Assembly (NCBI GenBank): GCA_016839555.1
Contig: JAEOUA010000010.1
Coordinates: forward strand, 352,001-416,000
From: Promethearchaeota archaeon
Lineage (GTDB): Archaea; Asgardarchaeota; Lokiarchaeia; Sigyniarchaeales; SOKP01
Length of the DNA: 64,000 nucleotides
Direction of reading: 5' to 3'
Positions 49,029 through 53,759 of the stretch are shown here, piece after piece. Position 1 is the stretch's first letter. The number at the start of each line of letters is the position of its first letter. The position numbers and the translations under genes are program-made. A model generated the notes under the pieces. The model did not search any database. It was not told the DNA's origin and was given only the letters and a program-made list of their open reading frames with translations.

Positions 49029-49955
49029 ATGTCCTTTTCCAACAAGTCCACGATTCTTTTTGACTTGGCACACAACGAAATGCTCTCGCCTTCAAACTCC
49101 TCTGATAATGAGTATTATGATTTCATTAAATTACTGGAAAATTTAAATTTAGACTTAATTAAGAACGATAATTCCGAGTTAAATGAAGAATTATTACAAA
49201 ATGTAGATGTTCTCATTATAGGAAACCCATTAAATGATTTCTTCTCAAAAACGGAGATAGAAACGATTATTGATTTTATACGACAAGGAGGTGCTCTTTT
49301 GCTCATCAGTGAATATGGTGCGGATTACCTACAAAAAACAAATCTTAATGATATTTCAGCTAAGTATTTTGATATTCTCTTTGAAAAAAACATAATTAAG
49401 GAAAAAAACGACATTAATGAAAAAGGCTCCAGTATTCTTTCGATTCAGTCATTTCCAAAGCATATGATAACTATTCAAATGAGAGAAGTTATTGTTGGAG
49501 GAGCTTGTTCATTATTATTAAATAAAAATGCGTTTTCACTATTGGAATTAGATGAAAAAGCTTGGTCTGAAAAATATAATGAATCAAGAGATGAATGGGC
49601 CCGAGAAGAAAAGAAAAATAGATATGTTGTTGCTGCGTGTAACGAATTTGGGAGGGGAAAAGTTGCAGCAATAGGAGATATTGATATTTTCTCGAATGAC
49701 CCCAATTTTGGAATTAATAAATTAGATAATAGAAAATTCATTACAAACTTATTTAATTGGTTAACAAAACCAATTGAGGATAAAGATGCAATCCATTGGG
49801 CATTAAAAAAAATAGGGAACTTAGAATTTCAATTAAAAAACACTCATGATAAAATTAATAATATCATTGAGACCCTCTCTTTTTTAGAAAAACGTATCTC
49901 TCGAATTGAGAGCAATATAGCTCTTATTAGAAAAGACGAAAATATTCGCTTATAG
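49029..49955 (+). CDS. GIFT/DUF4350-like (class I glutamine amidotransferase-like fold) protein with C-terminal coiled coil
   Basis: ILFDLAHNE, VDVLIIGNP...FSKTEIETIIDFIRQGGALLL, TNLN, GRGKVAAIGD.DIFSN, DNRKFITNLFNWL. No signal peptide. Confidence 0.75.
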   Translation: MSFSNKSTILFDLAHNEMLSPSNSSDNEYYDFIKLLENLNLDLIKNDNSELNEELLQNVDVLIIGNPLNDFFSKTEIETIIDFIRQGGALLLISEYGADYLQKTNLNDISAKYFDILFEKNIIKEKNDINEKGSSILSIQSFPKHMITIQMREVIVGGACSLLLNKNAFSLLELDEKAWSEKYNESRDEWAREEKKNRYVVAACNEFGRGKVAAIGDIDIFSNDPNFGINKLDNRKFITNLFNWLTKPIEDKDAIHWALKKIGNLEFQLKNTHDKINNIIETLSFLEKRISRIESNIALIRKDENIRL

Positions 49956-51371: not shown

Positions 51372-51602
51372 TTGGCCCGATGTCCCGAATGTGCTGGAAA
51401 AATGACTTATAATCCCGGCACAAAAAGCATGGTATGTAATTCTTGTGGATTATCTTTAAAGAGACATGAATTAGATAGTTATTGGAAAAAAATAAAAGAA
51501 GAAAATATTAAAGATCTAGACCAATCTGAGCAGAAAAAGCAGCGTAGGAAAGAATGGCTTGAGTGGTACTCCAAATCAAAAGAAGAAAAGGAGAGATATT
51601 AA
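51372..51602 (+). CDS. small zinc-ribbon protein
   Basis: CPEC...CNSC followed by a charged helix; TTG start. Confidence 0.75.
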   Translation: MARCPECAGKMTYNPGTKSMVCNSCGLSLKRHELDSYWKKIKEENIKDLDQSEQKKQRRKEWLEWYSKSKEEKERY

Positions 51603-51743
51603 GCAAGAATTATAATGAAATAATAGAAAATTAAAGAAGAGATCATTCTAATTTAATTTACTTTTTGAACATAAATATATTTACTTAATTTTATTTTTTT
51701 TAATTGCGTTTGAAATTAATATATATTTTAATATTTATGGATA

Positions 51744-52514
51744 ATGAAAGCTCTCAAATTTAAGGTCCTTTTGTTGGGCGTTTCAATGGTCGGAAAGACC
51801 TCTTTAATGTATAGATTTTTAAATAATACTTTCAATGAGAACTATATTGCAACCCTTGGAGCGCAGTTTTTATCAAAAGAAATAATAATCTGTTCAGAAG
51901 AAGGTGAAGAAATTTGTATAAAATTAATTATTTGGGATATAATCGGACAATCAAATCCATATTTTGATGATTTAAGGACCACATTTTATAGAGGAGCAGA
52001 AGGAGCCTTTCTCATTTTTGATCTTACCAGGGAGGAAACCCTCGAAAAATTAAACTCATGGCATAAACAACTCAATTCTGTTTTAAATAAGAAGATACCC
52101 CTTATTTTGATTGGAAATAAACTAGATTTGATCGAGAATAAATTACCTTTCCCAATTCAAAAAAAAGCTGAAAATTTCGCCAATAACATAAAAAGCATGT
52201 ATATTAAAACATCTGCTAAAACTGGAAAAAATATAAATGATGCATTTTTGAAATTAGCATATATATTAGCCAGAAAAGCAGGATATGAGTTTGAAGATAA
52301 AAAAGTAATAAACCGAATTTCTGATAAGGAGAGTGAAAATGAATTATTTATTAAAAGCAGAGTGCAAGAGTATATTCAATCAAAAGGATATAGAGTTAGT
52401 GACTCATTGCTTAATGGTTTAGTTTTAAACAAACGAATCACAGAAATTCTCGACAAAGCTATAATAAGAGCAAAACATAATGGAAGAAAAACCGTAAAAT
52501 TAATAGATATATAG
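51744..52514 (+). CDS. Rab-like small GTPase fused to C-terminal histone-fold domain
   Basis: GVSMVGKT, YIATLG, WDIIGQ, FYRGA, NKLD, TSAK. The last 57 aa (52341-52511) read LFIKSRVQEYIQSKGYRVS...ILDKAIIRAKHNGRKTVKLIDI, with the histone A-x-H-x-G-RKTV-x3-D signature. Confidence 0.88.
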   Translation: MKALKFKVLLLGVSMVGKTSLMYRFLNNTFNENYIATLGAQFLSKEIIICSEEGEEICIKLIIWDIIGQSNPYFDDLRTTFYRGAEGAFLIFDLTREETLEKLNSWHKQLNSVLNKKIPLILIGNKLDLIENKLPFPIQKKAENFANNIKSMYIKTSAKTGKNINDAFLKLAYILARKAGYEFEDKKVINRISDKESENELFIKSRVQEYIQSKGYRVSDSLLNGLVLNKRITEILDKAIIRAKHNGRKTVKLIDI

Positions 52515-52568
52515 TAATTTTCATTTTGATTTTCTAAACTTTATCTGAATTGTCAAAAGAAGTAAAGA

Positions 52569-53759
52569 TTACTTAAATTTTATGAAAAAAAGATTGCCTA
52601 ATAGTTCAATAAGTTTTCCGGAGGGAATGTCGAGTAAAGTAATTTCTAAACGCCTCCCTCTTTTATCTTCACTGATTCTTACCGTTTTAGAAGCGATAAT
52701 TTTTAACTTATTTAATTGTCGTATATATTTGCGAAAACTCATTTTAACGTGAGGTGTAACATCATATGCTTCACATATAGCTTGATATTCCTTGTATGAA
52801 TCATCAACAATAGTATATGACTCATCAGTTATTTTTAATGACTGGCATATCCCATAAAGAGCCAATAATTCATGATCACTTAATTTATCTATAATGTCAT
52901 CCCGGAAAGTAGGATATACTTCGTTTGATGCTTCACGCACCATTTCGGCGGTAATATTATCAAAACTTTCTTTATCCGCATATAATCCACATTTTCTTAG
53001 AATTTCTATCCCGTGCCTCATGTTTCCATGTTCTACGACAATTTGGCTTATCATCTCCAAGATATTATCAGAAACCACTCCTTCTTTAAATGCGATATCG
53101 CTTCTATATTTAAGAATTTTCAGAGATTCTTCATAATTATATGGGGCTAACTTAATTTTTGAATTCAAGCGACTTAATATTCGTTCTGTTTCGATTCGAA
53201 TCCAATCTTTTGTCCTAGCAACAAGCAGGATTGATAATTTAGCATTTTGATGTCCAAAGGACTCTGAGATATCTAATAATGCCCAAACATCCTTTGGGTC
53301 GAGCAGATGGATCTCATCAATAATTAATAATATATATCCTTTTTCCCGAATTAGTTGGGAAAGAATTAATTTAATTGCTTCATCATCCGAATATCCGCGT
53401 CCAGAACCGTGGGTATATTTGGATAATAATTCCCTTAAAATCATACTTTTAGTGCGAAAATTAATGCAATTAAAGTATTCTATAAATAGATCAATACCCT
53501 CTTCTATAGCAATTTTTTTAAAATTTCTCCCAAAAAATCTGGCTGTCACTGTCTTTCCAACACCTCCTTTACCCGTAAGCAATGTGGTAATAGAAGGTTG
53601 TTGACTTTCATCTATGATTCTTCTAAAAGTATGAATTAATTCTCTAAGTTCATCATCACGGCAGTATAATTTATCTGGAACATAGCTTAAATCCAAAGAA
53701 CTTGCTTGGCGAAACACTGATTTTTTATTAAATTCTGCTCTAAATGCTTCTTCATCCAT
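52569..53759 (-). CDS. cdc6: Orc1/Cdc6 family replication initiator
   Basis: YVPDKLYCRDDE, Walker A GKGGVGKT, YFNC, Walker B IIDEIH, RILSRL, GNMRHGI, C-terminal wH domain with RGR. Confidence 0.93.
   Translation of the reverse strand: MDEEAFRAEFNKKSVFRQASSLDLSYVPDKLYCRDDELRELIHTFRRIIDESQQPSITTLLTGKGGVGKTVTARFFGRNFKKIAIEEGIDLFIEYFNCINFRTKSMILRELLSKYTHGSGRGYSDDEAIKLILSQLIREKGYILLIIDEIHLLDPKDVWALLDISESFGHQNAKLSILLVARTKDWIRIETERILSRLNSKIKLAPYNYEESLKILKYRSDIAFKEGVVSDNILEMISQIVVEHGNMRHGIEILRKCGLYADKESFDNITAEMVREASNEVYPTFRDDIIDKLSDHELLALYGICQSLKITDESYTIVDDSYKEYQAICEAYDVTPHVKMSFRKYIRQLNKLKIIASKTVRISEDKRGRRLEITLLDIPSGKLIELLGNLFFIKFK

Follow-up and report, generated by a model that had tools for sequence, protein, structure and literature searches.

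A Rab-like GTPase joined to a face-to-face-type histone fold in Lokiarchaeia: an accessory gene of probable single origin with two histone subtypes

Background

One of the five categories of alpha3 histone distinguished by Schwab et al. (2024, PMC11390915), the 'Rab GTPase histones', is described in the sections of that study consulted here as occurring only in Lokiarchaeota. These proteins, exemplified by A0A0F8XJF6, consist of an N-terminal Rab-like GTPase and a C-terminal alpha3 histone resembling the face-to-face (FtF) type; the same sections show a predicted homodimer and leave the function open, with SOS given as a comparison, and at least seven members are found in the consulted part of the supplement. 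A paper from 2025 names the class again without data (PMC12701072). Literature searches found no experiments on any Rab GTPase histone and no paper on the combination of histone fold, GTPase, Asgard and domain fusion, and a 2026 preprint on Asgard chromatin makes no mention of GTPases.

The two halves of such proteins can be compared with better described systems. FtF histones are characterised by the wrapping of about 50-60 bp of DNA, and those with solved structures include HTkC (9F2C, 9T30) and HLp (9QT0-9QT2). In HTkC, R45 forms a bond with the carboxylate at the C-terminus of the dimer it faces, and the R45A substitution results in dimers, with which the bending of DNA persists (10.64898/2025.12.06.692711). 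Among GTPases, the strict criterion for a eukaryotic Rab is the presence of C-terminal geranylgeranylated cysteines, and Asgard Rabs have been described that lack a C-terminal cysteine (PMC10933270).

Results and discussion

The fusion gene and its GTPase domain

The window, a stretch of 64,000 nucleotides from a Promethearchaeota archaeon (contig JAEOUA010000010.1), contains a gene whose product, on the grounds of its sequence, is a member of the published Rab GTPase histone class (Table 1), with an identical architecture and, by the names of its homologues, the same lineage. The original prediction had named both the short-alpha3 class and Lokiarchaeia GTPase-histone fusions, correctly in view of the consulted sections of PMC11390915; these sections do not divide the class into tetramer-competent and degenerate forms, nor do they treat its origin or gene context.

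Table 1. Features of the fusion gene and of the site it occupies in the window
Feature	Position	Strand	Description
Rab GTPase histone gene	51744..52514	+	256-aa ORF without internal stop
Rab-like G domain, residues 1-179	51744..52280	+	G1-G5 motifs, RabF-like motifs, Pfam Ras
Variable low-confidence linker, residues 180-199	52281..52340	+	Net charge -2; 25% mean identity in family
FtF-type alpha3 histone fold, residues 200-256	52341..52511	+	Net charge +6
Tetramer and clamp segment	52467..52514	+	R242 (= HTkC R45), N246, R248-x6-D255, stop right after I256
Zn-ribbon gene, left border of fusion site	51372..51602	+	76 aa; conserved
orc1/cdc6, right border of fusion site	52569..53759	-	Convergent with fusion

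The claim of a complete G1-G5 GTPase is borne out, as all motifs are intact (G1, GVSMVGKT at 12-19; G2, T37; G3, DIIGQ at 65-69, with the catalytic glutamine retained as Q69; G4, NKLD at 125-128; G5, SAK at 157-159) and residues 7-172 match Pfam Ras (E = 1.1e-39). Given these intact and conserved motifs, the domain very probably hydrolyses GTP. The RabF-like motifs LGAQF, KLIIW, FYRGA and LIFDLT are present, and switch II carries a two-residue insertion typical of the subclade to which the fusion belongs. The best sequence matches in the PDB are Rab21, Thor-Rab and Rab5 (E values from 1e-33 to 1e-29), and fold searches with the whole AlphaFold2 (AF2) model gave GTPases only among the matches listed. 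The same genome contains approximately 40 related GTPase ORFs.

The likeness to Thor-Rab (7EZB) and to Rab21 and Rab5 is one of G1-G5 and RabF-like motifs rather than of demonstrated orthology to any eukaryotic Rab. The only cysteines are C50 and C58, such that a C-terminal cysteine or prenylation site is absent, as it is in Thor-Rab, and the protein falls outside the strict eukaryotic definition. The position that is taken in eukaryotic Rabs by a hypervariable tail and lipid anchor is instead occupied by the histone domain. The original prediction had drawn a parallel with chromatin-associated Ran, which can be kept as an analogy only, in that both would involve a small-GTPase pathway tied to chromatin. 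Ran is a separate subfamily that is loaded by RCC1; it does not appear among the best 60 sequence matches of the G domain, it is recovered in the fold search at a lower identity than Rab5 and Rab21, and no RCC1 repeat (PF00415) was found in the 92% complete genome. Orthology to Ran is rejected on these grounds.

An assembly artefact, or a stop codon missed between the two domains, can likewise be rejected. The probable source contig matches across the whole fusion ORF, a contig from a second sample of the source study is identical over 52229-52722, and a run from an independent study covers 52221-52365; none of the four variants listed (A172A, I189M, E198K and S221S) introduces a stop. The second-sample and independent contigs both cross the linker, and there are 54 homologous fusions. 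A scan for bacterial promoters, a search for repeats and an alignment of the AT-rich upstream region gave nothing beyond chance level.

The histone domain

Pfam alone does not detect the histone domain (PF00808, E = 0.066). When the C-terminal 58 residues are compared with FtF histones, HLp (9QT0) is matched with E = 1.9e-5 and HTkC (9F2C) with E = 0.003; a profile built from 25 fused histone domains matches HLp (9e-15), HBb (2e-10), HTkC (2e-8) and HMfA/B (1e-3 to 3e-3). In the AF2 model of the fusion (52 sequences, mean pLDDT 80, pTM 0.68), the histone helices span residues 196-213 and 220-223/225-245, followed by an alpha3 of three residues, within the 3-4 residues to which this helix is reduced in alpha3 histones and in agreement with the predicted C-terminal histone fold with a truncated alpha3. 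The proposed linker of about 20 residues was also recovered, being modelled with low confidence over residues 190-201. The RxTxxxxD motif of alpha3 histones is present (R248, T250, D255), which corrects the spacing of the R-x5-D pair reported previously. The small insertion in alpha2 is real, comprising two residues at the start of the helix, but is not specific to the fusion because stand-alone Loki FtF histones have it too.

The domain resembles HTkC and HLp in its truncated alpha3, RxTxxxxD clamp, flush C-terminus and DNA contacts, and shares with FtF histones the tetramer arginine and asparagine, except that HTkC has a glutamate at the asparagine position. It differs from them in bearing an additional N-terminal G domain of 179 residues, and in that the fusion, being rare and accessory, is no bulk chromatin protein. 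Its nearest relative is the stand-alone FtF histone of the same genome (52% identity), which also encodes five histones of the nucleosomal type. This stand-alone histone (L002:1489-1671; G000 C11:246319-246501), tail-less and on a longer branch, is the sole FtF copy detected in the genome. Many relatives have two such copies, often with a MAKK-type tail, and the second may be absent from the 92% complete assembly. The Loki stand-alone FtF histone is probably the HLoC of 10.64898/2026.07.02.735847.

Family and origin

A profile search identified 54 fused relatives, approximately 42% to 66% identical to the protein in the window, and those with named sources come from Promethearchaeota/Lokiarchaeota (e.g. 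Promethearchaeota archaeon and Ca. Lokiarchaeum sp. GC14_75). A scan of metagenome contigs found no further fusion. In trees of the G domain, every fusion falls into one clade (SH-aLRT 100 with 117 rows, and 100/99 in the careful tree), within which unfused GTPases are nested. In a short and weak tree of the histone domain, the fused histones lie on one side of a branch with support of 84, with 36 stand-alone histones on the other. Distances between G domains and between histones are correlated (Mantel r = 0.67, 0/2000 permutations). The simplest history is probably that a Rab-like gene of Loki fused once with a duplicate of the Loki stand-alone FtF histone gene and that losses followed, which fits the nested position of the unfused members. 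Several independent fusions are not favoured by the single clade of G domains and the one-sided placement of the fused histones, although that placement, with its support of 84, is itself neither shown nor rejected.

The nested unfused clade (P0058-P0066, e.g. L081:5001-5537) comprises GTPases of approximately 177 residues that have likely lost the histone domain; at the one locus examined, the surroundings contain no histone gene, and another small GTPase is encoded 2 kb upstream. Two further members look damaged, through either decay or assembly error: P0041 (L149:5001-5738) is without most of histone alpha1, and in P0054 a basic linker is retained but unrelated sequence begins where the histone is expected to start.

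Across 52 fusions, the GTPase motif positions that are at least 90% invariant include K18, T37, D65, G68, Q69, NKxD and SAK. Mean identity within the family is 76% in the segment from switch II to alpha2, the highest measured, 58% over the G domain and 54% over the histone. Most pairs are saturated for dN/dS; in the single unsaturated one, the linker has a value of 0.63, with the G domain at 0.26 and the histone at 0.15. Purifying selection on both the G domain and the histone is evident from these comparisons.

The linker is variable in length as well as in sequence. In some members of the family it contains lysine-rich stretches resembling the N-terminal tail of the stand-alone histone. Long lysine-rich C-terminal tails are also found on unfused Rab-like relatives close to the fusion clade (P0068, P0069, P0079, P0083 and P0113), where they could possibly serve for lipid-free targeting to membranes or nucleic acid.

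Distribution and gene context

The fusion is present in 6 of 161 genomes of the class, all six belonging to the same family as the source of the window and four to its genus; none was found in 239 further genomes of the phylum, for each of which the top six candidates were scored. A backbone of DUF362, Zn-ribbon, cdc6 and xerA genes, the last just past cdc6, extends across the family, and in most relatives the Zn-ribbon gene directly adjoins cdc6, leaving the gap vacant. The fusion was found at 3 of 30 Zn-ribbon loci examined, and the site is empty in three genomes of the same genus that are 93-98% complete. Within the genus-level clade of this fusion, its place is between the Zn-ribbon gene and the convergent cdc6, and the interval from fusion to cdc6 often holds unrelated genes; in relatives, equivalents of the gap at 51603-52568 contain an amino-acid dehydrogenase (L074 and L148) or SBBP-repeat genes (L036). 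In the other clades of fusions the neighbours are unrelated to those at this locus, and across the fusion loci examined no conserved neighbour hints at a partner. The fusion gene is therefore accessory and dispensable.

This also means that its nearness to cdc6 and xerA provides no evidence for a role in replication, because the site is usually empty and often shared by unrelated genes. A 'chromosome-cycle operon' was considered and rejected, given the convergent orientation, the generally vacant gap and the unrelated neighbourhoods of the other clades. The original prediction had proposed that the protein co-assembles into chromatin; binding to DNA is plausible from its contact residues, but a general role in chromatin is unsupported, because the gene occurs in so few genomes of the class and its site is empty in the three from the same genus.

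Several other features of these loci were recorded. The left-hand neighbour encodes a TFIIB-type Zn-ribbon protein whose tail is helical and charged; 51 of 61 genomes of the family have this gene, which is usually convergent with cdc6. A gene at 49029-49955 on the forward strand of the window, syntenic in relatives, encodes a protein of 308 residues in which an IFT52 GIFT domain (E = 5e-11) is accompanied by what looks like a coiled coil at the C-terminus. Two proteins of approximately 245-290 residues encoded elsewhere (L035:21-908, reverse strand, G136; L038:324-1118, forward strand, G115) contain an N-terminal region and two tandem FtF-like histone folds, and no GTPase. Their Pfam histone matches are weak only and the ESM Atlas returned no usable match; they are possibly another type of Loki histone fusion.

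The patchy distribution, the several losses and the differing neighbourhoods would be expected of a tolerated accident, in which neighbouring genes were fused and the domains remain independent or one is decaying. This is highly improbable, as 54 clusters that have diverged to the extent described above retain the fusion, with the histone under purifying selection, and it persists alongside free FtF histones in the same genomes.

Tetramer and DNA-contact residues

The positions of the fused histone corresponding to DNA contacts are K204, S205, R206, R217, R248, K249 and T250. When the contacts between HTkC and DNA (10.64898/2025.12.06.692711) are mapped onto the protein, eight of ten positions are identical or conservative; K11 is replaced by Q208 and Y55 by K252. 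The features of an FtF tetramer are also kept, with R242 and N246 both present and the chain ending flush at I256, so that the stop leaves the terminal carboxylate in the place required by R242. This arrangement suggests a reason for the N-terminal position of the GTPase, since a fusion to the C-terminus would break the ring.

The tetramer features are not uniform across the family. R248, D255 and the dimer core do not vary among the 52 fusions, but R242 is found in only 25 and N246 in 29, as against 36 of 36 stand-alone histones, which were chosen as best hits and hence bias the comparison towards conservation. All 25 fusions with R242 stop exactly one residue past the clamp aspartate, whereas 20 of the 27 without it bear C-terminal extensions, and the mean net charge of the histone is +6.4 in the former and +2.5 in the latter. 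An independent-pairs test of the association between R242 and C-terminal extension was below significance; as only about four independent changes are available, giving too few pairs, the pattern is not statistically shown, but it fits the structural expectation. From the distribution of these residues, the family splits into tetramer-competent and tetramer-degenerate subtypes, with the protein in the window being of the tetramer-competent type and KKK42259.1 an example of the degenerate one. As about half of the fusions are without R242 or N246 and much of the positive charge, and the nested clade is without the histone altogether, wrapping of DNA does not appear to be needed across the family.

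The proposal that the protein oligomerises through its histone fold gains support from modelling. Modelled as four copies, residues 193-256 scored 0.84 and the best control 0.00, on a scale whose mark was calibrated on homo-pairs (reached by 20 of 30 solved pairs and 1 of 23 single chains) and is only roughly valid for four copies. Contacts agreed between runs at 89% or above, partner pLDDT was at least 84, and the predicted dimers meet at residues 241-242, 245-246 and 254-255. Memory of solved FtF tetramers (9QT0, 9F2C) may be a source of this score. Tetramer formation by the full-length protein is considered likely on the strength of this model, which covers the isolated histone domain only; that the full-length protein binds DNA is likewise probable, judging from its contact residues.

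An alternative is that the histone fold serves only to oligomerise, bringing two or four G domains together so that they gain in avidity or activate one another, with any binding to DNA being incidental. Fixed clamp residues (R248-D255) and a fixed dimer core, alongside the decay of tetramer residues and charge in 27 fusions, are what this would predict, as is the greater variability of fused histones (53% mean identity, compared with 75% for the stand-alone set, which is biased as best hits). However, K204, R/K206, K/R208, K249 and T250, which face DNA in HTkC and HLp, are conserved in both subtypes, and even the HTkC dimer bends DNA; an exclusively oligomerising role is therefore a minority possibility.

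Similarly, the basic histone domain might be directed to anionic membrane lipids, in place of prenylation, a possibility named in the consulted sections of PMC11390915 by comparison with SOS. The missing C-terminal cysteine and the lysine-rich tails of several unfused Rab-like relatives are in keeping with such targeting. In SOS, the histone domain is H2A/H2B-like, binds lipids and is attached to a GEF, whereas the fusion has an FtF-like fold attached to a GTPase, and those same sections state that the two have no detectable sequence similarity. Furthermore, beyond net charge, the fusion retains the particular residues by which FtF histones contact DNA and form tetramers, which makes targeting to lipids decidedly improbable.

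A possible role for the fusion

The reading that we favour, with middling confidence, is that of a lipid-free Rab-like switch held on DNA by a histone tag, which would supply both an address and clustering at the nucleoid. The histone folds would pair into dimers that close to a tetrameric ring, formed either by the fusion alone or, conceivably, in mixture with the stand-alone FtF histone of the genome. This ring would bind DNA without sequence preference and carry as many as four G domains, each on a flexible linker, with the histone replacing the lipid anchor of eukaryotic Rabs as nucleoid address and clustering tag, while the G domain would recruit or release a putative partner through its conserved switch II. 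The protein is encoded by one ORF with intact motifs, its two domains have descended together, and the tetramer and DNA-contact residues are kept. A point against the tag reading is that crowding of the G domains lies outside the tetramer model, which is of the histone only.

Stronger forms of coupling between the domains can be envisaged. It is doubtful, though conceivable, that the tetramer-competent subtype sits directly on DNA and links its nucleotide state with chromatin, whether because DNA serves as the activator or exchange factor or through GTP-dependent recruitment of a chromatin factor. That the GTP or GDP state gates DNA wrapping or tetramer assembly, as a Ran-like chromatin switch, is improbable: both domains are intact and have been together since one fusion, but the linker that joins them is variable and modelled with low confidence, which suits a tether rather than allosteric coupling. 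The Rab-like nature of the G domain and the failure to find RCC1 in the 92% complete genome also argue against such gating, as does the rarity of a gene in a genome with nucleosomal-type and stand-alone FtF histones present for packaging.

Conclusions

The architecture of these proteins is already published; the larger family, its probable single origin, the two subtypes and the accessory status of the gene are new. The gene is unlikely to be the ancestor of a eukaryotic system, because it is rare and dispensable and, in the searched genomes, was found in a single Loki family only. Lokiarchaeia possess dozens of Rab-like GTPases that have neither a lipid anchor nor a known role, and the likely DNA destination of the fusion may offer a simple test of how Asgard small GTPases act, and of chromatin switches before the nucleus, for which the tetramer-competent, tetramer-degenerate and histone-less forms are natural controls. 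Were nucleotide state indeed coupled to chromatin, this would represent a prokaryotic small-GTPase chromatin signal, independent of Ran, in the closest relatives of eukaryotes.
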